A DNA stretch of 64,000 nucleotides from Neophaeotheca triangularis (taxonomy: Eukaryota): assembly GCA_054600435.1 (NCBI GenBank), contig BAAIJX010000001.1, positions 1,054,001 through 1,118,000 on the forward strand, in the 5' to 3' direction. Shown one piece after another: positions 472-22,531 of the stretch. Each line of letters begins with the position of its first letter. Within the stretch, counting starts at the first letter, position 1. Both the position numbers and the translations under genes were made by a program. The notes beneath the pieces were generated by a model. The model was not told where the DNA came from. It saw nothing but the letters and a program-made list of their open reading frames with translations, and did not search any database.

Positions 472-694
472 TATAAGACTAAGACTATAACTCGGTTAGG
501 ATCACGGTATAGCGAGGGCGGGACGTAATAATGGTAACAATAGTAACAGTCCTTTAATACAGAAACTATTCGATAGTAGATAGGAGACTTCATTGTTAGC
601 TATCTTATATACTTTCGTAGTATGTATACTTAGTACTCCTAAGCTACTCCGTAGCTTAGGCCGCTAATATCCTACTAGCGCTACGGTCGTGACA
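472..694 (-). repeat. 3' LTR of Gypsy element A
   Basis: TATAAGAC...GGTCGTGACA, colinear with 20938-21160; all differences are transitions. Confidence 0.95.
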
Positions 695-1827
695 ATTGCC
701 TCTCTCTCTAGTAGCTCGTCCTCGAGCTAGCACTCATAAATATAGTTATATAGGACCCTAGTATAGCACGTATGTTAGTATCCTCGTTAAAAACCTTAGT
801 AGTGTCTTTACTAAGGAAAAGAGTGATACTACATACTACCGTCATACTATTAGGTCCCTAGAGTGAATTCACCCCAAACCTGAGTTCGCTATAGCGAGGT
901 GCATTATTGTTATGATAAGCGGTATTAATGGCTACGTGGCGGTGATCTAGTAGGGTAGTAATTACTAGTAGAGCCTTAGCGTAATTATGCTATAATTATG
1001 CGGAGGTGACCTACTAGCCGCTTCTCTTTCGAAGACTTCCTCCTTTTAACTACAACAACAATAACAGCCTCTACTCCGTCGTAGTCCCTTCGGTATACTA
1101 GTCTACCTTTTAATAAGGTAACCTTCTTTATTAGTAAGTGAACTTTAGTTCTTTATGTATACGCTACTATTAGTCCGTATGTAGTTCTTATTGTTCTTTA
1201 ATAATGAAACTAACCTCACCTAGTTTCCTATTATTACCTGCTTCTAGTGACCTTTCGAAAACCTTACCTAGCGCGGTTTAATAAAAAGGCGCTCCTCGTA
1301 CCTCTAACACCTTCTTGCCTTCTTTATTAACTACTTTTTTCGTGATCTCGCTATCGCCCTTTTTTCCGCTAGCTTTATTCACTACCTTCATTACTCTACT
1401 ACTATTCTATCATACCTCCGCGTGTTAGTAAGCGTCTAAAGGCGCTAGTCGACTATAGCGTTAGCGCTATAGCCATTAATAGTAAGGGTACCTTTACTAT
1501 AGATAGAGCGATTATCGCTAAGGGAGTCTTTATGACTAAGGGCTACTATTAGATCAACACTAGTAGTTTTATAGAGGAGGAGTTAAAGGATCTAGTTAAT
1601 GAGTCGAAGTCTATCAAGAAGGATTTGAAGTTAGAGGGTGTTAGTACGAAGCGTACTGTAGCTATTAAGGGCGTAGGCTCGAAACGTAAGTATGCTATAG
1701 GTAATAATAGTAAAGAGAGTGAGTCTAATAAGGGTATACTAGCGTTCTGTCGCTTCGCCGACATCGATAAGGGTAAGAAGCTTACTCCTATTAATGTTAA
1801 TCGCCCTCGTTATTCGCGCTACATTAA

Positions 1828-1979
1828 TGTTATGGTAAGAGGGAGGGAGCCCTTTTGGTTTAGTAGGGAAGGTAGTAGCCTAGCCCTAGGCTAGCTACTT
1901 CTACCTCTATAGCTAGATAGCTTCATTCATCTATCTTGTTTACATCTCACACTTTGTACTACACCTATTAGTCGTAGTA
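1828..1979 (+). repeat. 5' LTR of element B
   Basis: Colinear with 14588-14739; followed by AT-TAGTAGCTA, a possible RIP-altered TGGTAGCTG primer-binding site. Confidence 0.95.
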
Positions 1980-2045
1980 ATTAGTAGCTAAGAATAGCAA
2001 GGATCCCTTGATTACTAATACTAGACAGCTAGCTCTAAACCTATA

Positions 2046-2235
2046 AGTCGTCTCTACCTACTAAAGTCGTCTTAACTAGCTAAAGTCGTCTCGACACCCT
2101 AGAGTCATCTTAGCACCTCAAGGTCGTCTCGACACTTTATAGTCGTCTCGACACCCTAAAGTCGTCTCGACACTGTGATGTCATCTCGACACGCTAGAGT
2201 CGTCTCGAACCTCGCTAGGCGTCTCGGTACCGTAC
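2046..2235 (+). repeat. Tandem array of ~10 x 19-bp units (core AGTCGTCTCGAC) in the 5' leader of element B
   Basis: Cores start at 2046, 2065, 2084, 2103, 2122, 2141, 2160, 2179, 2198, 2217. Confidence 0.9.
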
Positions 2236-2690
2236 CGCTATCCTAACACTACCTACCTATCTCGGCCTACTATAGGCGTTACTACAACCCCTCGGTCGTT
2301 AGCGAGCCCCTAGTTCGTCTCGAACTACTCCGAGCGCTACGATACTTATTAGCCGCTTCGAGCTAACCTTACGCTACTTAACGACATCCTACTACTCTAA
2401 GTCGATTAGTGATACACATTAGGTTCGAAGGTACACTACCTTATAAGAATATAAGACTAATCCTAGACCTAGTATCGATTATAAGTGTCTCTATACATGC
2501 CCGAGCCACTATAGCGCTTAGTACCCACGCCTCTAATCCCTTTCGCCCCTCTACCTAAGCTACTTAGCATTAGAACCCCATATTGCCCTCCCCTTTCCAC
2601 TACTCTAATTTAGTAGTTTACGGAAGCTATAAAGGCCTTCCGACTCCGCTTTCCGCCCATAAGTTTAGTTAAGCGCTTACCGATTGAACT

Positions 2691-5600
2691 ATGTTTATTA
2701 CACTAGACCCCTTACCCGAACTACCTACGTAAATCGTACTCGTAGCTTACTAACTTCACGCTTTCTACTCCTACCCCGGCCGCTCGAAAGCCGTCTATAG
2801 TAGGAATCCTTAACTCTAGGACACCCTTCTCCTAATTACCTAGAGCTACCCTATTAACTAGGACCTTAGAGAGTTTAGCTTCCCTACTAGTTAGTTAGTC
2901 GAAAAATCACTTATTACTCTAATCGTGTACGACTTACTTACCGCTTTTGAGGGGATATACTACTACCTAGCCCTCTACTTAGACCTACCCGAGCTAACCC
3001 TTATAGGTGTACTAGCTACTATTATTACTACTAAAAGCTGCCCTATATGTCCCCTAAGGAAAGTTATAGTCGCCCCTATGAGACAGGTTATAACTACTCC
3101 CTAAAAACCCCCTACTATAGAAGAACCCTAGCTTCCTATAGCTATTAATCCGGTCTACGACTCCCTACTAGCGACTACTCCCCAACAAATCCTCGCTATA
3201 CTAGACTCCTACCCTTCCCTAGCCGTTAATCCTATCTAGTACCCCTTACCGCTTACGCTACCTTTAGAGATCTAAGTACTACTAAGTAAAGACATTAGCT
3301 CTACTATTAGCGACGACAGCCCCCTAGAACCGTCATAGTACCCCGGTTTCGAGGACCTACTAAAGACTAAGCGGTCGACGCCCTCCGAGCCTTTATAGCC
3401 CTTACTAACTATAAAGGCCTCCTCGGAGTCACCTCTATGTACTTATAATGAATTTAGAAACGCCCCCTTCCCCTTCCTCGCGCCTAATTAGACTTTTCCC
3501 TACTAACCTGTATTAATAGTCGTGATAACGTCTAGATAGGAAGGTACCCTCTATAACGGCCCTATCGACTACGACGAGGACGACTATTAGTTAGCTCTAG
3601 CTAGCCTAAGTGCTAGGACCTAGGGGAAATAACCCTAATAGGATCTAGAGCCGGATTATATTACACGAGACAGCATTCGGGAGATGCTCTATGAGGCGGT
3701 AGAAGAGACGAGAAGTGCTTTAGTCGCCGAGTTCTAACATACTATAGTATAGGTTCGCTCTAAAGCTAGTACTGATCTCGATAAGCGCTTCTAAGCGTTT
3801 CGCTATAAACTCGGACAACCTAGACTACTCCTAAACACTACCTCGTACTAGCCGTTACCCTCTATCGAATCCTAATAGGAGATTCGTTATCATGCCCCTC
3901 CTCATGACGAGCGTCTTAGGAGAGCTAGTTTATTCGCCTACCCTAGCGAGGAACAACTAAATGTACGGCCTCTATCCCTCTAGCGACAAATCCCCCGTGA
4001 CTCCCTACCTAGATACCGTACCCGGGATGAGCCTAATAACCCTAGCTCTTTAAGCTTAGACTCTAACTACTACTTATACTCGCGAAGGGAGCGTTATAGG
4101 GATCGTCGCTCTCGTAGGACCTCCCGTAGTAGACGCGACTCCTACTACGACTATAACTAGAACGCGTCATGCTTACGTTCTCGCTAGGGCAACTTTAGAC
4201 CTAACGATATAGGCTATTTCGATCTATATCTCCTAGTCATAACTAAGGCACTAGTAGGTAACTCTATTACTTATTAGAACAAACAATTCTTCTACTCCGT
4301 TCACTATTTCCTCTAATCTGCCTAGGATTACTCTACTATTAACTCCGCTACTACTACGAGGTAGTAGTTACTGAAATGCTTATGTAGAGGCGCGAGCTAG
4401 TAGTTTATTAGCTAACTCACTGATGCCGATAGGGCCTACCTTCGCAGTAGCTATAGTATCGAACATTAGGAGATAGCCCTACGCGACAAATTCCGTGTCT
4501 TAGTCATAACTACGCTCACTAATCTTAACAAGGAGCTCTTTTCGCGCGATAACATGTAGTAGGGGAGAGCTCCCTCTAAGTTCGTACTAAGCTACTACTA
4601 ATAGGCTTTAGAAGTATAGATCGATAGCCTAACTACTAGGATAGCTTAGTGTTAGCTTCGAATCGAGCCCTAGCTCTAATGAGATATCGATAAGCCTAAC
4701 TATACTACTATATAGGAGGAATTAATACGTGAGATAGAGGATTACATAGACACTTGGGCTAAGTTATACCCCCTCTACCCTACTAACCTACTAAGTAAGC
4801 ATTATTATCCTAACCCCCTAATCGATACTAATAGTATAGGTAACCGCTACTTTAGAGGCGATAATCGCTATACGCCTAACCCTAACCTCTAGGCTCGACT
4901 TCCTAGAAACGGAGTAGACCGTTACCTGCTAAGATAACAACCCTAGAGTGCCCCCCCTACCTAAAGAGAGTTCGGTTTATAAGACAATGTAAGCTATCTA
5001 TAGAATTAAGGTCGCTAACGCCTACCTTACTAGGACAGATAACCCCCCTAATCAGCCCCCCTACGTACTTAGCTAAGGCTAGCTAATAATCACTTAGCCG
5101 ATATCGACGAGGATAACGAAGTCGATGACTATAATCATGTAGTAGAGCCCGACGAGTTAGAGGAGTACGAGGACTACGAGGAAGACGCCCTAGAAGTTAA
5201 CTTCGCTGACATCGTAGCCTATAACGATAACGACGACCAATTTCTCACTTCGTCTAATCTAGTCTAAGCCTATCTAAACGAGGCTTTAGCCTCTAGCCTT
5301 ATTATAGCTCCTATACTAGTAGTACCGCGACTAGCGCTATCCGTTTAGCCCCGCCCGGCTAAGCTTAGGTATTTGGAATGTAATGATTCTTTCGGTTCAC
5401 GAAACTCTCTCTATAGGCACTTATAGCTCGTATATAGCGCGGTAGAGGACTCTAAGTCTACCTAACTAGCTAAGGTTCCTAAAATGACTTCCTTACCTAA
5501 GTATAAAGAGGAACTCCTAGTCGTTAAATCATTAGCTCTCGGGACTAACTATTAAGGATATGCTTTCCGTAATTTTTACTATCTCCGTCTCGCTATTCGA

Positions 5601-8600
5601 CTAGCTAAGTTAGGCGTCGACTACTCCGTCTACCTCGATATAGGAGCTGTTATATTAATAATTGACAAGCGATTTTTGGCTACTTACTTACCTAGTATAT
5701 AGCTCTACAAACTAAAAGTGCCTTTTTAGGTATATAGAGTTAGTTCCTAACTACATACTTGCTCCGAGTACGCCGAACTTACCTTCTAGACTCTTACCGA
5801 TACCCTAGTAGGAAGGGGCCTCTATGAGATGACCTATAAGGTATACATTATTAGCGACTTAAAACCTTTAATGCTCATTTCTATAGACATTATTACCCCC
5901 TAGGCAATAAAGATTGACATCCCCTATAAGCTCGTGACTATTAGAGCCTATAGAAACGCTAAAGTACCCCTACTCATCAAGCCTAGAGACCGCTTAAAGC
6001 TCGGGTTGTCACTAAAAGCCACACACCCTATCACTATTCTACTACGCTTATTAGCGAAAGTTCCCTTAGCCTAGATAGACCTCCCTATAGATAGGGATTT
6101 CGACTTCACACCTAGCCTAAACCTTCCTCCTAGGTTAAAAGGATATAACTATACTACTAACGCTAATTTGGCCTTTATACTAATTAGGAACGACTTACTC
6201 TAACCCGTAACGCTACTAGCTAGGAAGCCCCTCGGCCGTTTAACTAAGTAGACCGACGAGGAGGGCTATCACATTAGCCCTAACAACTATTACCTAGTAG
6301 GGCTCCTACCTAAAACCGTTTTTAATGGCCTACCTATAGCTGACTAGCTAGTCTTACCTAATGGAATCATAGTGTTCGGCGATGACATATAGGTAGTAGC
6401 CTTTAACATGTTGTTAGCCGACTTCCCCGACTTGTTTGTCGATAAAGGCTAAACTGTAGACATTCCTAAGCATCGTCACATACCTATCTATCTTAAAGAT
6501 AGCTAGGAAAAGGAGAAGCTATCTATAAAGGGGTATCCGCTCTACGCCTTAGACCGCGTTATGCTTAACGAGGCCTATAATAGACTATACCGCTAAGGCA
6601 AAATGGAGTGGTCTTATAAGTATATAGCTTTTAGCTCCCTAGTTTTTGTCATGTAGAAAATAGTCTATTAAGATAGAGCCCTAGTAAGAAAGGGTCGTAT
6701 AGTCGTTAATATCCGCAACCTTAACCTCGTTATAGTCAAAGATAGCTACCTACTCCCTCTCTAAGAAGACCTTCTTTAGGCAACATAAGGTACTAAACTT
6801 ATCTTAGTCATAGACGTAGTCGCCTTTTTCTTCTAGTGGCTTACTACCGTAAAAGACCGGTATAAGCTCGCTGTCAACTCCTATTATAGGCAGGAAATTT
6901 TTAAGGTCGCTATTATGGGTTTCAAAAATTCAGTAGCCTATGTCTAGAGGGAGCTTAACAATATCCTATACTACCTCTACCCATTTTGCCGCGCTTATAT
7001 AGACGATATTGTCATCTTTTCCGCTAACCTTAACGAGTACCTCGACTACCTCTAATAAGTGTTCACTGTCCTATAAGGATACTACGTCAGTATTAGCCTA
7101 GTCATAACCTTCTTAGGTTTCCCCTCTACCGCCTTACTCGGCTAGTAAGTTAGTAGACTAGGCCTAGCGACCTATGAGGACAAAATTAAGGCTATACTAG
7201 ACCTCTAGTTCCCTCGTTCCTTAAAGGACTTAGAGAAATATCTTAGGCTTACCGGTTAGTTACGACAAGCCGTCCCTTATTATGCCTAGATTACCTAGCT
7301 ACTTAAGGGTAGCCCTATAAAGGGTAACGCTAGAAAGCGTTACTTAGCTACTATAAAGGTCACTCTCGATATAGACGAGCTCTATGCCTAGGCATATACC
7401 GCTTTCGAGGCCTTATAGGCTATCTTTAAGGACTCCCCTTTCCTTTACTACCTTAATCTAAAGAGACGGCTTTATGCCGACGTCGACGCCTCTAAAGAAT
7501 TTGGGTTTAGAGCAGTCATCTATATAGTGGCTAGAGACCCCGACCTAGTTATGTCCGGAACGAAAGCGCTATACTTTCCTAGGAAAGACATCTAGCCTAT
7601 CGCCTTTTTAAGTAAGGGACTTACCCTTATAGAGAGTCACTATTAGCCTATAGAGTTAGAAATAGCCGGCTTGGTTTAGCTTCTACGAAAGGCACACTAC
7701 ATCATATAGTCGTCACTACTTCCCACTCTTATTTTCACTAATCATATAGCTATAACGGGCATCGCTACCTAATGTAGCCTCACTACTACTACTTATACTA
7801 ATAAGCTTAACCTCCGGCTAGTTAGAGCTAGCTAATATGTCTCCTAATTTAACCTAGACGTCTACTATAGGCCTAGCTATATCCACTTAGTCCCTAATGC
7901 TTTAAGCCGCCTACTCGGTAAACTCGCTACTCTAGTAGAGGCTCTTACTAACACGCTCGACCCTATAGCCTATAAGGAAGTACACTACGCCTCTATTAGC
8001 GCTACTGATTACGATAGCGCGGATGCTTAACACTTCCCAGATTTCGCTGATTTATAGGAGCCGTTAGCCTTCTACACGGCCTTAGTAGAAATAGCCGACG
8101 ACCTTAAGTAGGAGATTCGCGCTAGCTATCGTTTAGACCCGTACTAGGCCCCTCGCCTCCTCTAACTCTAGGCATAGGAGGAGCGCCGCTATCGCGATAC
8201 TACTAAGGAGTCGACGCCCTTATAAGAAGCTATGACCGCTCTATAGACCGTCCCTACTTAGCCTATAGAAGTCGTTAGCGAGACTAAGGATACTTTAGAG
8301 GGCGAGCCTAAATCATCCCTATTAGGCCTCCGATTCTTCTTACGCGACGACCTTATCTACTATAGAGATGACGCCGATAGCTAGGAACGCCTATATATTC
8401 CCTACTTAATCTTTAAGGAGGTTTTCGCGATAGCGCACGATAATCACCACCATACTAGTTTCTTTAGAGCCTATACTCGCGTTCAGGCTAGCTTTTATAT
8501 CCGCTACTTACCCTAGGAGCTACGACGCTATATCTCCTACTACCCGGACTACGTATTACACTAGACATGATAACATAGGCCCCTAGGCGAGCTCTAACCT

Positions 8601-9737
8601 ATAGAGGTTCGCCTAATCCCATATCACACTTAAACCGCCGACTAGGTACATGCCCTACCTCCTACCCTAACGGGCTTCGATTCCTTACTTATAGTTACTA
8701 ACCGCTTCTCTAAAAAGATCCTGTTAATTAAAGGGCGCGCTGATTAGTTAGCACCGGAATAGGTAGTAGCTTAGCTAGAGGCACTCCGAATAGCTAATTA
8801 GAATATTCCCACTATTCTTATTAGCGATAGAGATCCCCTATAGCTCTCTACTTTCTAGAAGGAAGTTTTTAGGTAGCTTCGTACTAGGTTCCTCGCTTCT
8901 ACTACCTACTATCTATAGACCGATGGTTAGTCTAAGCGAACTAACTAAACCGTAGAGATCGCTATCCGTTTCTTTGTCAACTCGAACCTAGACACGCCTT
9001 AGGATATAGCTCTACCCTATATCTAGTCGACGCTTAATAATGCCTAGAACGCCTCTACAAATGAGATTCTAAACATAGTTATCTAAGGCTTTAGAACAAA
9101 TTTAGACGCACTTAACACTCTTATCGAGCTCCTAGCTACAGATTACGTTACGCTTAGACAAGTCGTAAGGGACTAAGCGTCGGATGTACTAGCGATAGTA
9201 GCTGCCGTAATAAAAGACAGGTATGACTATACCCATAAGCCTATCTACTTCAAACCTAGCTAAAAGGTCTTACTTAAGCTCTAGTATAGTTACACTATCC
9301 CTAGTTTCATTCCGAAAAAGTTAGCTATATAGAGAACAGGCCCTTTCAAGATACTATAGGTAGTAGACCGACTAGCCTACAAGCTCGATCTCCCGCTATA
9401 CTAGAAAATCTACCTAGTAGTTTCCATTACTTAGTTAGAACTAGCTCTCTAGGCCCCGGATCCTTATAACTATAAGCCTACCGAATTAGGCCCCGTCTCT
9501 ATTAACGATAATAGGATTTCAGTCTGTGAAATCAAGCGTTTACTAGCTAGGAGAGTCTGTACGTAGTAGGGCAAGCCGATAAAACAGTATCTAGTGAAGT
9601 GGAAAGACTAGGGCCTAGCACATAATCTCTAGTATAACGCTAACGACTTAGCCGACGCTTAGGAGTTAATAGTAGAATACGACTATATCTATCCTAGTAT
9701 AGACGGCAACCTTAGGGTAAGGGGTAGACGCTATTAA
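2691..9737 (+). pseudogene. gag-pol: Single-frame gag-pol of element B (gag, C2H2 finger, protease, RT, RNase H, integrase, chromodomain); ends approximate
   Basis: All in one frame: DIGYFD (4206), (Y>C)LECNDSFGSRNSLYRHL*LV(Y>H) (5370-5435), YLD(I>T)GA (5631), KGRIVVNIRNLN (~6690), AYIDDIVIF (6993-7019), YADVDASKEFGF (~7473), AHDNHHH (~8433), YYL*TDG*SKRTN*TVE (~8907), YLVKWKD*G (9588). Stops are TAA/TAG at expected Q/W positions. Confidence 0.92.
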
Positions 9738-10232
9738 CTACCCCTACCTCGACTCGATTCCCTCTAGCTACCTTAGCTAGTACCACGACACCTAATAGTA
9801 GTCATCCTACCCCCGACACGCTACCCATTACCCTCCGCCTCCGAAGGAGAGCCTAAAGAGCTCCTATAGTAAGCTAACCCCTACCGCCTATATCCCGCTT
9901 TCTAACGCTCTAGAGCGGAAGTCTACTAGTAAGTTAGGAGGGTAGCTACTTATGCCTTTAGGGGTGCCTAAGGCATCTCGGCGGCATTACCATTCTTATT
10001 AGCGCTATCGATAACGCCCGCCGTCGCCACGACGACATATGACGCGGCACCTTTCACTTCTTAGCATGACTTCTTACTTTCCGCTTTTAGTAATAATAAT
10101 AATAACGCGACTCCGCACCTTTCTAAAAAAGTTCTCCCTTATCCTATGACTATACCTAGCCATAACACCCTTTTCACATAACACCTTCGCTCTATAATAA
10201 CACTTCTTCGTCTACCTACTTTATACTCTTAT

Positions 10233-13200
10233 ATGTCAGATAACTCTAACTTGTTACTACCTAGCGATAACATCTCTAAAACCGAGTACACCTCTACCTA
10301 CCCACTACTAGTAGCTCTTACGCTAAACGAGCTCATACTCTTACTATGCTTCATACTAAGATGCTTTCTTCGCATGTAAGAGACTAACTCAACCTAAAAC
10401 ACACGCCCTCGTCTCCTATAGGGAGAGAATAGTATAATAGCTAATACATCTTAACCCGCTACGCCTTTAGTAGTCTACTATTCTATCGAAAAACCAGACC
10501 TGCTACTAGCTTAGTGGTCTCCCTACTAGCGTGACACTTTCGCATGTAACGGATTGTAGATCCTAGATACCTACTCTCTCCCCTCTCTATCGCTACCATT
10601 CTAGCCCTACGAGGCCTAGTTAATTGAGAACATAGTAGTAGTTCTCCTTTACGCTAACCTTAGCGTCTTATTCACCTAAGACACTTTCACTCTTAGCCTC
10701 TTAGTAGTAGCTAATCTTCTCGACCTAAAGCATGAAGACCTTCGCCCTTAGACGTTAGCTAAGCTTCTCTTTACCTACTTCCGTTTTATGCCGCTCGACT
10801 CACTCTTTAGTGGTACACTCTTCCTATACCTTTTAGAGCTTAACGACGACTCCGCGTTACTACTCTAGCTTAAAGCTATCTACGGCCCCTAGGGTATAGA
10901 ATCCGTAGCGCTCATATTAGCTTATATAGGCCCGTCGCTTTTCGCCGGCCTTTCTTAGTTAAACGAAGAATACTAGCCGTTACTTCGCGCTTCGTTTCCT
11001 ATAGCCCTAAAAGACCTAAAGGACTATACCCTTACCTAGATTAAGTATACGAAGCGCGTAAAGGTTATCGTTACGCTAGGTTTTACCTACCTCGTTAGCT
11101 ATATGACAGCCGAGCAACTCCTTCTCGACGGAGCCCTACTCCTATAGGAATTAGCGATATAGGTAGCTACCTATTATAGGAGAGGAGACCGACTCCTCGC
11201 TACTCTCGAAGCTTAATTAACTATCGACAATACTTTCTACGACACTAAGCGCTAGAGCGCTATCTATAAAGGCGTCGAGCGCGAAAACCCTAAGGAGTCC
11301 CTAGAGTACTACGATAAGTAGGCTATCGCTAAGCTCGCCCTTAAATAAGCTAAACTATATATATGCCTAGTAGACTATATCTTAAACGCCTAGCCCGGGG
11401 TAATCGCCTACTTCGCGTACGAAGACGATAACTAAGTCATCGCTATACCTACTAATCCACTCTACTTTTCGATCTTCTACGCCTTCTCTATAGACGCGGT
11501 AGCCCCTATAGAAGAGCTCGCTAGGATTACTAAGTGCGAGCGCTAGGTAACTAATCGTCTAGGTCAACTCTACTCTTTCGAGGTCTTAAAGACGTTAGCA
11601 CTAGACGACAGATTCACTATAGCACTTTCCTACTTCGTCGAAGTCCTTTTAGAAGGTCGTTACTCTACGCTCTAACAAGCCTACTAGAAGACTAAGAACG
11701 AGCCCTATAGCTATACCGAGCTCGTCCTCTACGCTATCGGCCTTATAGTTCGTGACGCCTAGTCACTATCCCCTTTCGTTAACTCTACTATAGGCGGCGG
11801 AATTCCTAACCCCTTCACTACTATACGCCGCTATGACGGTATCGATAAGGTAGAGGACTAGTTTCTAATGTACGACAAAACCCGCCCTAAGAGCGCCGAA
11901 ATTTCCCGGGAGCTAGGCTCTAAGCTTAACCTAGCTAAGGCTTAGGGCTACTACTAGTACTATATAATACACTCCTATTTCTCTCGCGAAAACCTCCTAC
12001 CTAGGAATGCTATCCTGAGCGATTGTGACGTATACGAGCTCATACTACTCTATTATATAGATAAAGTGCTCTCGAAGAGGTTCCTATACGATAACTAGCC
12101 AGCAAATTTTAACTAGGACGTGTTACCACTCCCTATTCGCCGCCCCTATAGCCTACTAGTAGTTATCTATGTTAAAAGCGACAACTACTACTACTATGTT
12201 TATGTCTAGGGCGTATACACCCTTAGTAGTAGAAGACACTACTATAACACCTTAGAGGCAGCCCACGATAACGATCGCTATATCGACTACGACACTAATA
12301 ACCTCGTCTTTTACCCCTAGATACGCCCTAACACAGTAGGTGTATTAAAGTCTTATCACTCCTAGAAAGGAAAGCCTGTCTTTAGATACGACCTAGACAT
12401 AGAGGTTAATTGGACTAAAATCGAGTGGCCTAAGTACGTAGATATAGACCGCGTATAGGACGACTTACATATATACCTCGACATATAAGCCTCTATAAGC
12501 CTAACACACTAAGCCGTCCCCTAAGAGGTCGTCGAGATCTAGCTTTAAGGCCGTAATACCCTCGCTAGGCCCGTCCCCTACATTCCTAGCTAAGAGGCAA
12601 TTAGGGAGCTTACTAACGTCGCGGAGTTCTACGACACTAACTCTTTCCCAATCTAGCATTATGTAGTCAACCTACCTCTACCCTAAGACTAGGACGATGT
12701 TTTACTAGTAAGCGCCGCCCTCCCTCTAGCGGTATCAACTAGTAAAACTAGTAATACTTTCCGTTTGCCCCTATCCCGCTCGACTCCTACTAGGCCCTTA
12801 ATAGGGACTACCCCCGCCCTAACTACTACGACGTCATATCGCTTACCTATAGGACTAGCCCTATTCCCGTCCTAAAGCACGACGGCTATAAAGCACTACG
12901 GCCCTACGGCACTCCCTAATCCTTTCGTTAAAGACAAACACCACGCCTTAGTAGCCGTAAAGGCTCCCTATAAGGGCGCTTTTGCGTAAAGCGCTACTAG
13001 CGCTAATGCCCTAATGATGTTAGGAGCCCGACAGGACCGCCCTCTACTACTCGATAGCGAGATGACCGCCGATTCTTAGTACGGCTATGATGACGCGGTA
13101 TAGAGATACTACACTGCCCTTAAGGTATTAGAGCGCGTCTACATTAAATCGGAGCGCCTCTAGGAGGAAGCTAGGGAGTAGCTAAGACTAATAACTAACA

Positions 13201-13676
13201 TTAAGCGCGACACTCTCGCTATAGTAGCTACTAACATTAAGCTAGCGAAGGATAGCGCTATACGCCACGGCGATCTTAACATTATCGACCTACTACCTTA
13301 GGTTACTATAGCATGGAACAACTAGGCTTTTAAGTAACTAGACGCTCCCCCTCCCTCTATAGGAAACGCCTTAGGTATAGACGTTACTTAGCTATTCTAG
13401 GTCCTAGTTCCTCCTAAGGACATTCCCGAGCCCGACTTCTAGTCCTTACTAATAGTAGGTAGGATAGCGCTACGAGCTACTACCGGCCTATAAGCTACCG
13501 TCGAACTAACCCCTATAGGCCCTACTCGTAACACTCGATCTAGAGTACTTACTAGTAGCGCTAAGCTAGCGACTATCCCTCCCTATAGCTTAAACAAGAC
13601 GCCCTACCCTAATAAGTATCTACTACCTACGAATGCTCCCTAGTTAGTAAGCAAACGTACCCGTACCGTTCTATAG
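10233..13676 (+). pseudogene. Extra ORF (~1150 codons) of unknown function downstream of pol in element B, RIP-degenerate
   Basis: From ATG 10233 one frame reads as protein-like for ~3.4 kb (e.g. KGVERENPKESLEYYDK, ELVLYAIGLIVRDA, VNWTKIEWPKYVDIDRV) with only TAA/TAG stops and no apparent frameshift. No domain recognised; 3' end uncertain. Confidence 0.65.
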
Positions 13677-13699
13677 CTCTAGGTTGTAAACGGTACTCT

Positions 13700-14072
13700 A
13701 GGTGAAATCCCTTATAACTACTAGGCACCTTCGCTCTACTAACTTAGGGCGTAATCCCTTTTAACTATTAGGTACCTTCGCTCTACTAACTTAGGGCGAA
13801 ATCCCTTTAACTATATAGTACCTCCGCTCTACTAAAGCGAGGCTTATACCTCTAAGCTTATCCTAGTATAGCTTTATACTCTCTACGAGCTCTATATAGA
13901 CTAGCGTTTTAACAGCTCTTCCTAGTATTAGCTTTGTCCCTCTACGAGCTTTTTCTATAGACTAGCGATTTGACAGCTCTACCTAGTATAGCTTTATCCC
14001 TCTACGAGCTTTTCTATAGACTAGTACTTTAATAGCTCATTCTAGTATGGCTATCGCCCTCTACGAGCTTTT
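13700..14072 (+). repeat. Two tandem repeats in the 3' region of element B (~47 bp x ~3; ~59-60 bp x ~3.5)
   Basis: ACCTTCGCTCTACTAACTTAGGGCG repeated within 13700-13835; CTAGTATAGCTTTATCCCTCTACGAGCTTTTCTATAGACTAG repeated within 13862-14072. Confidence 0.85.
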
Positions 14073-14266
14073 ACGCGAGCGACATATGACCGGTATAGTA
14101 CATAGTATATTTATCTAAAGCATAAAGGAACTTCCCTATACTACTAAAACTCTCTAGCCTTATTTTAACCCTACCCTGACTTCCTACCACGACTAGCTAT
14201 TACGCTACTACCTCGCGTAGCGCTAATAGCTCCTCTAACACTATAAAGCAAATATAACCCCTCGCC

Positions 14267-14545
14267 GTCGAGACGATTTCTCTATATCGAGATAGCTCTT
14301 CGCTACCGATATGGCCCTATAATGTCTAGATAACCTTTCCCTATTAAGACGACCTCTAGTAGTCGAGACGACTCCTAATAGTTAGGACGACTCCCGATTG
14401 TCGACACGACTCCTAGTAGTTAAGATGACTCCTAGTTGTCGACATGACTCTAAGTAGTCGTCACGACTCCTTGTTGTCGAGACGACTCTAGGTTGTCGAG
14501 ACGACTCCTACTTGTCGAGATGACTTCCCCTTAGGGAAGACGACC
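14267..14545 (+). repeat. Tandem array of ~11-15 x 19-bp units (core GTCGAGACGACT) before the PPT of element B; reverse complement of the 5' array
   Basis: Cores at 14343, 14362, 14381, 14400, 14419, 14438, 14457, 14476, 14495, 14514, with weaker copies from 14267. Confidence 0.9.
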
Positions 14546-14587
14546 TTAGCCTATAAGGACATGTACGCCTCTTAGGGGGGGGGAGTT

Positions 14588-14739
14588 TGTTATAGTAGGA
14601 GGGAGAGAGCCCTTTTAGTTTAGTAGGGAAGGTAGTAGCCCGGCCCTAGGCTAGCTACTTCTACCTCTATAGCTAGATAGCTTCATTTATCTATCTTGTT
14701 TACATCTCACACTTTATGCCACATCTATTAGTCGTAGTA
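14588..14739 (+). repeat. 3' LTR of element B
   Basis: Preceded by the GGGGGGGGGAG polypurine tract, followed by TSD ATTAA. Confidence 0.95.
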
Positions 14740-15813
14740 ATTAAGGAGCTCTTAAGTAACGTTCTCGATAGGTCTATCGACTTTATCCTACTATATAAGA
14801 CAGTGCCTTCCGCGACCGGATCAGTATGTAATACCTACTCTAACGCGAAGTAATCGTGCCTCGAGGTAAGCCTACTATAGCTCTATCGTCATTACGAGTT
14901 TTCACTAACGTCTCTTTAGATCATTCCTAACCTCGCGAGCTAGCGTAGCTATCATGTCTAGATGAACTATACCACTATGCTCTATTATGCTAATCGCGCT
15001 AGTAGTAGCGCCGCTAGTTCGCTAATGTACCTTAAGGTCTTAGAAGTTAACGCTAAGGTCTCCTAGTACTTCTATAAGAATAACTACGCTATCATTCTAA
15101 TAGGGGGCCTTCATCGTTCCGGTCCTAATAACGATAAGATCTTAACTCTATACGATATAGCACACCTAATCACGGATTAAACTCGCGACTTCGCTACGAT
15201 CGTCACTAATGCTGTCGAGAGGCTTATCGCTATCTACTATATAGAAATGTCTATACTTATTAGCGAGATGTCTAGCTACTATCGCGCTACGCCTTCTTCT
15301 TCGCTAGTATACGATATGCCTAGTTTTAGTAAGTCGCCACCTTACGATAAGACCGTTAGTATGCTAGTACTAGTAGTAGCTCCTAAGGTACTAGTAGTAG
15401 AGACTAAGGGTCTAGTTCGGAAGAGTAGTAGGGACGATGCCGGTACGCTACTAGAGGTGTCTTCTAGTAGAAGTTCTTCTTCTTCGCTAGAGTTAGATAA
15501 TAAGGAGGATAAGGCTCTAAAGAAGCCTTCTAGTCTCTTAGGCTTCCTTAGGATTCGCTATAGGGACGACGCTACTCTATTAGTAGGAGAGAATGTAGAG
15601 AAGTCTATTAGTACCGAAGATTAGCTAGAGGCTAATATTGCTAAGGTTTCGAAGGAGTTAGACACTAGGGCTTGAGCGTTTATTAGATTATTTGCATACT
15701 CTCTATAAGCGCTATTGTCCTGTCGCTAGCCTATCTATAGTAGCTATTAATTAAGAAGCTTATGTACTACGTCCTTTTCCTATAGTTTTCTTCTTTTTTC
15801 CTAGCTATGTATT

Positions 15814-18800: not shown

Positions 18801-19743
18801 ACCATATTAATCCGCGGACTCTATCTAAGAGTTTACTAATAAGTAGTAAAGGATGCTTATTCTTAATAGTAATTTTATTCAAGCCTCGGTAATCGACGTA
18901 TATATAGAGTTTGCCGTTTTTCTTCTTAACGAATAGTAACGGTATACTAGTAGGGCTAGTACTAGGCTTAATGCGGTCCGTCGCGAGTAGGTTGTTAATC
19001 TACGACTACATTTCCTCGAGCTCTAGCTCGGAACATAGGTAGATTAGTCTACTAGGAGGATTCTTCCCCTCGACTAGTTCAATATAGTAGTCATAAAGCA
19101 TATACGGAGGTAACTCTTTCGCCTTCTCTAATTTAAACACCTTAGCGTACTCTACTAACTACTTAGGTACCCGCGGCTCTACTAGGGTCCTATATAGGTC
19201 TTCTACGCTAATAGCGAGGATAGATGCTCTACCATTAATATCTTAGGCTAGTTCTTCGGCCTCGATAATTTCGACTTCTTCTTTATTATACATACTACTA
19301 TAGCGTCACTATACTAGTAGCGACGCGAAATTAAGCTATGCTTTTATAGATCGGATCTAAGGCATTCTAAGAATCATTTCATAATCCTTCTAGTTTACTA
19401 CTTCGAACATTTGTAGAATAGTCTGAACTATACTGTCTAAATTAGCGACTTTAGTATAGAGTCGACATTAGCTTACTATTAGGGCTTCGATGTCGCTAAA
19501 GGCTCGTAGCCTACGAATCCGGTCACCCTTTATCAGTAGGTTATACTAGACCGCGATGTCTTCTAAGATAATATTATAATACGCTCCTATATCGATAAGC
19601 CTATAGGCCTCGAAGCGTAGCCTGTCGTAGGTTCGATTATATATCTTTACGACTACCTATAGGCGCTCCGTTAATGCACTACCTACTTACTACCCTAAGC
19701 CTTTAAGGCTAACAATTAAATGACCTAGGGCTAGGCTTTTCCC
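15814..19743 (-). pseudogene. pol: pol of element A (protease-RT-RNaseH-integrase-chromodomain), RIP-degenerate
   Basis: One frame contains LID(I>T)GA (~19582-19599), VMPF(R>G)LAN (~18675-18696), VYID(N>D)VLIY (~18580-18606), LSTAY(Y>H)P*SD(R>G)*TERQN (~16624-16674), GPFRI (~16195-16209) and chromodomain YYVL*KD*LIEEGT*E (~15940-15987). End approximate. Confidence 0.92.
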
Positions 19744-20888
19744 TTTCGGCAATTTTCTTACTAGTAGCCTTTACTACTACACTTGAAATAAAGGTTTTCT
19801 TTAAGGGCTTTATTGTTTCATTCGCTACTATTAGTCGAACCTATACGGTTCACACTAGTCGCTAGTGTCCTATTAGTATACTAGTAGCGCGGTTTAGAGT
19901 TATTATCGCTTATACTCTAGTTTTGTTCTCTTTTCTTATAGCTAGAACCTTTTAGGTCGGTCTTATATAGCTTATCTACTATCTCGTCTCTAGCGTCCTA
20001 GCCGCTATAGCTAGTATTGTCGAGGCGTATATAAAGCGCGATGAGGTTATACTAGTTATCTAGTACTATTAGCTAGGCATTTAGCTTAGCCTTAAGGTTT
20101 TCCTATAGACCTATCTTAATGAGGGTAAGGAGTATATACTCTAGTAGTAGAGCGACATCGGCCTCATAGAGGGAGTCTTCGATATACGAGAGGTAGTCGT
20201 GAATAGATTAGGTTGCTCCCTAAACATATCTAAAACCTCAGAACGCTATGTTTATAGCGCGGTTTTCAGGGTCGAGGATCTAATCTAGTAGCTATTCTTT
20301 AAACATAGGCTATTTCATCTCTTTGCGTTCGAGTCGTGACTCTTTACTCTCCTAGTTCTAGCTAATACGGCCGTATAGACAGCCCGTAGTATACTAGACA
20401 TACTCATACTAATAAAAGTAAATATAAGGGTACGTCTTAAACACATACTCGTATTACTAGATAAATGTCTATACTTTTAGGAGGTTAGGGTGACTCCTAT
20501 AAACTACTAGTTTAGCTAAGCGAAAAGCTTTCTTAATATCGATGTAAGACTTTCGCTCCTTTATCGTTATATCGGTAGGTAGATCTTCGTCTACTATCTA
20601 CTTATATACTACTAGGGTAGGGGCAATGTCCGCTAGGTCCTCTAGTTCGATATATCCTCTTTTAGACTCGTCGCGGGGGACCGTCGCTCTATTAGCGGCT
20701 CGCTAAATAGGCGCTATACGCTCTACTAATTGTTGTCGGAGTTCCGTAATAGTAGTAGTAAGGACCGTGTATTAGTCTATAGCCGCCTCTTCTTATTCTT
20801 ATAGGGTGTTAACTCTAGTAATAGTGTTAGGGGAGTCTACTAGGTTAGTATCATCGACCTATAGGCGTAGCGAGTACGATAGTACTAT
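19716..20888 (-). pseudogene. gag: gag of element A (RIP-degenerate) with CCHC zinc knuckle
   Basis: The minus frame reads (Y>C)FKCSSKG(Y>H)**ENCRKGK at ~19740-19790, i.e. CX2CX4HX4C after reversing RIP. A likely start ATA (<ATG) at 20888 is in the same frame. Confidence 0.8.
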
Positions 20889-20937
20889 AATGTCTAAGCG
20901 AATCTTAACCTAAGAAGGTTCTAAGATCGAATAGAAT

Positions 20938-21160
20938 TATAAGACCGAGACTATAACTTAGTTAGGATCACGGCGTAGTAAGAGTAGGACGTAATAATGG
21001 TAATAATAGTAATAGTCCTTTAATATAGAAACTATTCGATAGTAGATAGGAGACTTCACTATTAGCTATCTTATATACTTTCGTAGTATATATACTTAGC
21101 ACTCCTAAGCTACTCCGTAGCTTAGGCCGCCGATGTCCCGCTAGCGCCGCGGTCGTGATA
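20938..21160 (-). repeat. 5' LTR of Gypsy element A
   Basis: Second 223-bp copy; minus-strand TATATAAG at 21070-21077; gag starts ~50 bp downstream. Confidence 0.95.
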
Positions 21161-21339
21161 TAGTCGAGAATTAGGGATTGTTCGTAGCGGTTACGAACAA
21201 TGTAGCGGGATCAGAAATTAGTCGAGTCGGTCGAGTTAGTCATAGCGGACGGAAGCTACTTTAATTAGTCGCAATTCATTCTATGTGTGTCTGTCTAGGT
21301 AGGTGTCTAAGATATAAGTACTAGGGGAGGTGTACCTAT

Positions 21340-22040
21340 AAGGCCCTATCGCATTATGAGGCTCCGTCGTATTATAAGGCCCCGTCGCGTTATAAAGGCC
21401 CCGTCGCATTATGAGGCCCCGTCGCATTATGAGGCCCCGTCGCATTATGAGGCCCCGTCGCATTATGAGGCCCCGTCGCATTATGAGGCCCCGTCGCATC
21501 TTACCCCGTCATATTATAAGGTCGCCGTCGTATTATAAGGCCCTATTACATCTTGCCCGGGCCCCGTCGCATTATGAGGCCCTATCGCATCTTGTCCTAT
21601 CGCATTATGAGGTCGCCGTCGTATTATAAGGCCCCGTCGTATCTTACCCTGTCGTATTATGAGGCCCCGTCGCATCTTGCCCCATCATATTATAAGGTCG
21701 CCGTCATATTATAAGGCCCTATTACATCTTGCCCGGGCCCTATCGTATTATGAGGCCCTATCGCATCTTGTCCCGTCGCATTATGAGGTTGCCGTCGCAT
21801 TATAAGGCCCCGTCGCATTGTGAGGCCCCGTCGCATTATGAGGCCCCGTCGCATTGTGAGGCCCCGTCGCATTATGAGGTCGCCGTCGTATTATAAGGCC
21901 CCGTCATATCTTATCCCGTCGTATCTCGAGATTGCCGTCGCATTATAAGGGCCCGTCGCATCTCGAGGCCCTGTCGTATTGCGAGGTAAGACCCTGTCGT
22001 ATTGTGAGGGCCCGTCGCATCTTGAGGTCGCTATCGCATT
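21340..22040. repeat. 18-bp minisatellite (GAGGCCCCGTCGCATTRT) with interspersed shorter variants, inside the TIR element
   Basis: Directly visible; it produces the spurious (MRRGLI)n and (HYEAPS)n ORFs. Confidence 0.95.
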
Positions 22041-22531
22041 GAAACATTGTTGTCTAGGTAGGGGGGGAAGAATAGGTAGAAGTTTAAGCAGGACATTGGG
22101 ACAGAAATCCGTCGCTGGGTATGCTTGGGTGACCGTCGGGAGTGGGTGATACATCGCACACTGAAACAACAATCGCGCTTCCACTTACGAGCAGAGCGGG
22201 TTTTCGACTTGCACATGCTGTGGCTATAAAATTCAAAAAGCATACCATTGGGTATCATACTAGAAGGTACAAGAGACTGATTACTCCTCGCTCTCGAAAT
22301 GAAGCGACGTCTCTATGGGGCTCCCTGGCAAGTCGAGACTCGTTGCACCAAGCCGTGGCACCATCGCCAGCTGTTGGCCAAAGCTACCATGCTACTCTCT
22401 CTGCGCCCTTGCCATGACTTCTCGCTCATCCACCTGTCTAAAGCATCTAAAACACTTTGTTGAGACCAATCCCGGTCCCCTGTTGTAGCTAATTCATGCC
22501 GTGCTTCGCCTCTCCCAAACCGCCCTCATCT

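Follow-up and report, generated by a model that had tools for sequence, protein, structure and literature searches.

A probable spliced antisense gene with a six-cysteine pattern in a RIP-inactivated Ty3/Gypsy element of Neophaeotheca triangularis

The window analysed here is a stretch of 64,000 nucleotides (nt) from Neophaeotheca triangularis (assembly GCA_054600435.1, contig BAAIJX010000001.1, positions 1,054,001 to 1,118,000), taken from a genome of 25.4 Mb in 136 contigs. Its first 22 kb are repeat DNA with a strong signature of repeat-induced point mutation (RIP), the TA/AT ratio being about 2 against 0.71 in the remainder. Here lies element A, a RIP-inactivated fungal Ty3/Gypsy element of 7.8 kb with long terminal repeats (LTRs) of 223 bp. 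Between its pol gene and its 3' LTR, on the strand opposite to gag-pol and convergent with pol, is a reading frame that is very probably a real and spliced gene, interrupted in this copy by a later Ty3/Gypsy insertion, element B. The gene was first proposed from the letters of this stretch by themselves (the sequence-only reading), as encoding a DNA-binding regulator with a zinc-cluster-like motif of six cysteines. Its parts, and the insertion within it, are as follows in window positions.

695-1411 (+): leader of the antisense gene, 717 nt, non-coding, presumed to hold the promoter; tolerates indels of 1-2 nt
1134-1223 (+): putative second intron, in the 5' leader, GTAAGT...ACTAAC...TAG; donor and branch/acceptor in 9 of 9 copies
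1412-1827 (+): exon 1, part before element B, with the start codon, a basic patch at codons 91-96 and motif positions 1 and 2 at 1811 and 1820
1828-14739 (+): element B, with LTRs of 152 bp at 1828-1979 and 14588-14739
14745-14865 (+): exon 1, remainder, with motif positions 3 to 6 at 14794, 14827, 14836 and 14857
14866-14919 (+): phase-0 intron of 54 nt, two codons past the sixth cysteine, GTAAGC...ACTAAC...TAG
14920-15675 (+): exon 2, 251 codons and TGA

Removing element B and one ATTAA does join 1412-1827 to 14745 in frame, at the coordinates that the sequence-only reading gave. The duplicated ATTAA lies at 1823-1827 and 14740-14744. In all ten other aligned copies of element A it is single, element B is absent and the frame runs through the junction uninterrupted. 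Positions 1412-1827, 14745-14865 and 14920-15675 then read as one frame of 430 codons with seven internal stops, ending in the TGA at 15673-15675. The earlier estimate of about 430 codons, convergent with pol on the minus strand, was therefore accurate. The start codon is ATA in the window and ATG in 8 of the 10 other copies.

Searching the genome with parts of the antisense gene gave at least 17 matches to the downstream part and at least 18 to the upstream part. The copies compared were ten others that span the element B junction and eight full-length ones (7.73-7.78 kb), and the gene is present in all eight of the latter. In both exons of every full-length copy the antisense frame has the lowest stop count of the six frames, with 0-4 stops against 4-35 in exon 1 and 5-8 against 11-42 in exon 2. 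The indels in exon 2 are net multiples of three in every case; the leader carries several of 1-2 nt and the intron tolerates them too. Since pol is free of any 1-nt indel, assembly error is an unlikely source of those in the leader. Codons 39-129 of exon 2 (15034-15306), a stretch of 91 codons, have zero transversions among the eight copies and mark a conserved core. The Ser/Pro-rich tail of the exon varies between copies. Basic patches are found at codons 7-10, 69-73 and 91-96 of the protein of copy L005, and the antisense protein has no strongly hydrophobic segment (best 19-residue mean 1.56). All of the copies analysed are dead by RIP. The window's own is doubly dead, by RIP and by the insertion of element B, and so contributes a variant and a conserved intron point but no function.

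Relatives outside the genome were sought with an alignment of element A pol and 17 intact database polyproteins, which retrieved 79 metagenome and 9 viral-collection loci. In a FastTree tree of 89 reverse transcriptase (RT)/RNase H sequences, from which L110 and element B were left out for want of one long RT match, two copies of element A are sister to the element L028 (support 0.998; 53% identity), the closest of the 87 outside elements, and L041 comes next with weak support. L028 is a single element in a circular assembly, its gag and pol frames are open, and its antisense gene, at the corresponding site, is intact, with the pattern C-x2-C-x16-C-x9-C-x2-C-x6-C followed by two codons and a 50-nt intron (GT...GCTGAC...TAG). 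The distance from LTR to ATG is 739 nt in L028 and 717 in element A, and that from the end of the antisense gene to the pol stop is about 100 and about 75 nt, respectively. The first loop is longer in L041, which has a 47-nt intron at the identical point with in-frame stops inside it. A search for the cysteine pattern in antisense frames of Gypsy elements had been suggested at the outset; among the 49 outside loci with at least 800 nt downstream, seven have an antisense six-cysteine pattern and two a sense-strand one. The seven are not all independent, as L042 and L056 are near relatives. Three of nine peptides from the antisense loci weakly match Zn_clus (best E 0.0045), the short-loop relatives scoring 13.5-17.5 bits.

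A second Gypsy family of this genome, less mutated and with a shared LTR of about 211 bp (L116, L119, L121 and L123; G000 C22, C4, C2 and C8), has short-loop antisense six-cysteine and coiled-coil open reading frames (ORFs) directly behind the chromodomain, mutually different in sequence. These were seen in 4 translated loci out of 12 fetched. A metagenome Gypsy relative, L038 (3904-8282), has a sense frame of 932 codons beyond its pol match, with a Cys/His-rich repeat region.

The intron after the sixth cysteine has its signals at 14866-14919, as first proposed, and is found at the same position and phase in L028 and L041. The initial caveat was that 54 nt would keep the frame with or without splicing. 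This has been answered as far as DNA allows: the intron is 53 nt in 3 of the 10 other copies, and those of L028 and L041 are not multiples of three, so that splicing is required in these relatives. Splicing of the element A gene is therefore strongly indicated. The leader-intron candidate also has a counterpart in L028. Such introns can outlast retrotransposition, since the genomic RNA has the opposite sense and they are not removed from it.

In element A the motif is spaced 2-18-10-2-6, and two codons separate its last position from the intron. The window retains just two of the six cysteines, Cys4 (14827) and Cys6 (14857), in agreement with the first count, and Tyr codons stand at 1811, 1820, 14794 and 14836. 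Counted over nine copies, the window and the eight full-length ones, Cys occupies codon 134 in two, codon 156 in six, codon 167 in one (the window) and codon 177 in seven. Natural copies therefore show Cys at four of the six positions. Motif positions were compared across elements by counting back from the splice donor, by which codon 170 of element A falls on the fifth Cys of L028 and its C-S-R-Y (134-137) on C-M-R-C. Automatic alignments of the motif between elements were discarded as wrong, since they did not pair Tyr with Cys. Across all six frames of element A there is a single occurrence of the Cys/Tyr pattern; in shuffles of the element, a pattern with at least four observed Cys appears anywhere in 20 of 500, and the loose pattern in 65 of 500.

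With the alignment of copies as query, a word-index search and a full HMMER search found three and two proteins only, all of the same family and marked by RIP, one of which (P0002) has Tyr at all six motif positions; no relative outside the family of element A was found in two protein collections. No Pfam family was returned for five exon translations of element A copies and P0002, and the ESM Atlas gave no usable match to the element A protein. Searches with the motif of L028 yielded no candidates, either in proteins of 77-245 residues or in viral contigs. A model of this motif, of moderate confidence (pLDDT 69.8), has two helices, one following each CxxC. Fold searches with it returned one Foldseek row at E 8.1 and a best Z of 2.8, with no zinc cluster listed. 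In the ESM Atlas its best score was 0.87, to unnamed ascomycete clusters, and a cluster with DUF3716 in 28% of its members ranked 13th (score 0.77); both are leads only. DUF3716 (PF12511) is not listed at E<=1 for the intact exon 1 of L028 or L041, nor at E<=10 for the element A copies. The name DUF3716 was rejected for the motif as its score fails PF12511, and the name Zn_clus because loop length and score fail PF00172.

The remainder of element A has the layout of a Ty3/Gypsy chromovirus, with LTRs, a target duplication, and gag followed by protease, RT, RNase H and integrase.

472-694 (-): 3' LTR, 223 bp; target duplication TAGTC at 467-471 and 21161-21165
695-709 (-): polypurine tract, with GGCAAT at its end before the LTR, likewise in L028
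15751-19755 (-): pol, comprising protease, RT, RNase H, integrase, SH3 and a chromodomain-like tail, with RIP stops; lower end approximate
19735-20900 (-): gag, not in the frame of pol, its zinc knuckle near 19750-19790; both ends approximate
20938-21160 (-): 5' LTR

Pfam matches above the cut-off in pol are RVT_1, RT_RNaseH, Integrase_H2C2 and SH3_Tf2-1, and the protease was identified by eye. The Chromo match in the RIP-damaged pol (E 0.015, 15.7 bits) falls under the cut-off of 25.1; PF00385 is listed for all of the 33 best pol homologues. Viral contigs searched with the integrase alignment of the RIP copies gave no match. The two LTRs are identical at 197 of 223 bases and differ by 26 transitions and 0 transversions; dating the element from this pair was rejected, as every difference is a RIP-type transition. 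Inverted arms of 64 nt at 246-309 and 22074-22137 (89% complementary) flank element A together with an 18-bp tandem array (21290-21960). As these arms enclose both, element A seems to have inserted into a small terminal-inverted-repeat element, which would make the locus a nest of three levels.

Element B interrupts the six-cysteine motif of the antisense gene. Its length of 12.9 kb is due to a second long sense frame past pol and the chromodomain, of about 1100 codons (10236-13580, +), which has 62 stops where the other plus frames have 104-110 and is retained in two further genome copies, L129 and L130 (81-82% DNA identity). His/Tyr-rich motifs lie near 11990-12500 in this frame, a Pfam search of it returned no family, and it may be a further accessory gene not described before. 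Arrays of a 19-bp unit lie directly inside each LTR (2033-2243 and 14330-14544), mutually inverted and 73-80% complementary. Between the extra ORF and the 3' array, at 13701-14068, are short degenerate tandem units of 47 and about 60 bp.

On the most likely reading, elements of the element A family had, besides gag and pol, an accessory third gene on the opposite strand, in the interval from pol to the 3' LTR. It would have been transcribed antisense from the LTR-proximal leader region into a product of about 430 residues. This would have a basic N-terminal part with a nuclear-signal-like patch, then a module of six cysteines, with an extended first loop and probably with two bound zinc ions, then the conserved core, ending in a long helix, and the variable tail. 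The antisense protein may work like a zinc-cluster protein. Its most likely job would be that of a nuclear regulator which, bound to the DNA or chromatin of elements of its own family, tunes their transcription in trans. For gene and mechanism taken together the chances appear evenly balanced.

Several results weigh against this reading. Codons 137 and 170 are Tyr in all nine copies, and likewise in further partial copies. The ancestor at these positions could have been His or Tyr. The claim that four Tyr codons are former Cys, for which copy comparison had been set beforehand as the test, thus stands for codons 134 and 156, in a frame that is conserved among copies; at codons 137 and 170 Cys is found only at the equivalents in L028, from which it is presumed for element A. 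In the zinc finger of the integrase, just one of the nine copies still has the second Cys, and just one the first His, so Tyr in nine of nine is compatible with a lost Cys. Arg is an improbable ancestor, because the Arg codons near the motif largely retain CG. Exon 1 of one copy has a 1-nt insertion. Modelling of the full-length element A protein gave an uninformative structure (pLDDT 28). Profile comparisons of the element A protein with L028 and L041 are not significant (hhalign E 0.56-0.8; hmmsearch E>10 for L028), so the case for homology is built on motif spacing, the position of the intron, synteny and the RT tree. Neither L028 exon 1 nor L041 exon 1 matches a Pfam family, and Zn_clus (PF00172; cut-off 21 bits) has no match in the element A copies, L028 or L041. 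A Gal4-type cluster has six residues between Cys2 and Cys3, with basic residues that read the DNA. The first loop of element A has 18 residues and is non-basic. As this fails the Gal4 spacing, DNA binding is put forward only as a supposition, and the original description of the product as a DNA-binding regulator found no direct support, with neither a Zn_clus match for element A or L028 nor a zinc-cluster fold retrieved. The signal of purifying selection between copies is weak and falls short of significance: over the eight copies, 15 of the 60 transversion columns in the antisense gene are silent, against 19% expected (p=0.15), and in exon 1 only 2 of 18. In pol, 19 of 41 are silent (p=2e-5), and only without the divergent copy L025 does the antisense gene reach significance, with 11 of 32 (p=0.036).

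A distinctly less probable account, and the strongest competitor, is that the gene is real and its product a factor in conflict with the host, acting through protein or chromatin contacts in counter-silencing or integrase targeting, and not a transcription regulator; the cysteine cluster would then be a structural or interaction module. The non-canonical loop fits this, as does the predominance of replacements in exon 1 (16 of 18). The antisense coding region also diverges between copies far beyond pol or the leader, with 60 transversion columns in its 1290 nt, where pol has 41 in 3975 nt and the leader 10 in 717 nt. In L025 (G000:C3:68800-78000), pol is 4 transversions from that of L023 and the antisense gene is 41-49 from all others. 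As a typical pol is here paired with a distant antisense gene, the mosaic suggests that the antisense module has been exchanged between lineages. L025 and L011 both have a distinct allele of the gene on an ordinary pol. Plant transposons encode anti-silencing VANC proteins, according to the parts of two papers that are available (PMC5735166, PMC10398659). However, the counts are small, mosaic ancestry by itself could account for the excess divergence, the short-loop relatives resemble Gal4-type clusters followed by coiled coils, and no likeness to an anti-silencing protein was found, though no search aimed at it was made. It is unlikely, though conceivable, that fungal chromoviruses of an entire branch share a spliced antisense protein with a non-canonical, long-loop zinc cluster, fast-evolving and swapped between lineages, which binds the chromatin of its own element and counters host silencing as a counterpart of plant VANC and of the retroviral antisense regulators.

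Less probable again is a captured host gene or vestige, whose protein is irrelevant and whose effect comes through pairing of antisense RNA with the genomic RNA. Antisense RNA is named as a possible function of such genes (PMC7264820), and the selection test over eight copies and the absence of relatives outside the family in the two protein collections are in line with it. Yet the frame-keeping indels and the 91 codons without transversions speak for a protein, L028 preserves the identical layout intact at an RT identity of only 53%, and a host mRNA captured by reverse transcription would as a rule lack introns and lie in the sense orientation. That there is no gene at all, the low-stop frame and Tyr/Cys pattern being due to chance and to RIP, which yields Tyr from several codon types, has already been largely refuted, and is very improbable despite the loose pattern in shuffles, given the coincidence of start, splice signals, stop, in-frame indels and the intact L028 gene with its matching intron point.

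Annotations of fungal LTR retrotransposons list gag-pol and nothing else, and what antisense extra ORFs do is treated as unsettled in PMC7264820. The retention of motif and intron position between a dead family and an intact distant relative provides a concrete hypothesis, that of a zinc-binding nuclear regulator or counter-silencer, and L028 provides an intact natural gene for experiments. The presence of this intact counterpart suggests that such elements bring their own regulator or counter-defence protein. Parts of transposons may also stand in fungal annotations as small hypothetical proteins of the Cys6 or DUF3716-like kind.

A spliced antisense gene near the 3' LTR is also found in human T-cell leukaemia virus type 1 (HTLV-1), where HBZ is a nuclear regulator of the bZIP class. 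The likeness to the element A gene is one of functional analogy only, as HBZ belongs to a retrovirus and to an unrelated protein class. An antisense promoter in the HTLV 3' LTR is mentioned in PMC7264820. The PF00172 cluster shares with element A and L028 the six-position cysteine pattern and two CxxC pairs, and with L028 a predicted helix following each CxxC pair and a long helix downstream; the short-loop relatives match it weakly. It differs in that the first loop is 18 residues in element A and 16 in L028, without basic recognition residues and without a Pfam match, and two of the Cys are unobserved in element A. DUF3716 is found in REP9-1 and REP9-2 of the Zymoseptoria tritici DNA transposon REP9, which, as far as the available part of PMC8232023 goes, are small transposon-borne accessory proteins like that of element A, REP9-1 having six cysteines. 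REP9 is a class II element, though, and DUF3716 has no match in element A, L028 or L041.

Among plant elements, antisense ORFs between pol and the 3' LTR (aORF-3R) include gene23 of maize Grande and those of rice RIRE2, Silene Retand and PvRetro13; nuclear, regulatory roles have been proposed for them, and that of Grande has its own promoter upstream (PMC7264820). They resemble the element A gene in position, orientation and presence in most copies, and differ in belonging to plant elements and in having SMC or transposase-28 domains rather than a six-cysteine cluster (PMC7264820). The same paper gives Boty as the fungal case, with function unknown. No description of a zinc-cluster (Cys6) antisense gene in fungal Gypsy elements was found in the literature searched, which leaves out most subscription journals, and term searches of the accessible text of PMC3248453 and PMC10799480 turned up no such antisense gene. 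Among the closest known systems is brtn, the additional antisense gene of the Boty-like Ty3/Gypsy elements of Botrytis cinerea and Sclerotinia, described in the available parts of PMC8365987, PMC7264820 and PMC4227169. It shares with the element A gene a fungal Ty3/Gypsy element, a pol with a chromodomain (a probable one in element A) and an extra antisense gene between pol and the 3' LTR; these descriptions, as available, name neither a zinc cluster nor a function (PMC8365987, PMC4227169). The accessory gene of element A, real but dead, is a variant of the antisense extra genes already known, with a long first loop in its motif and very probably spliced.

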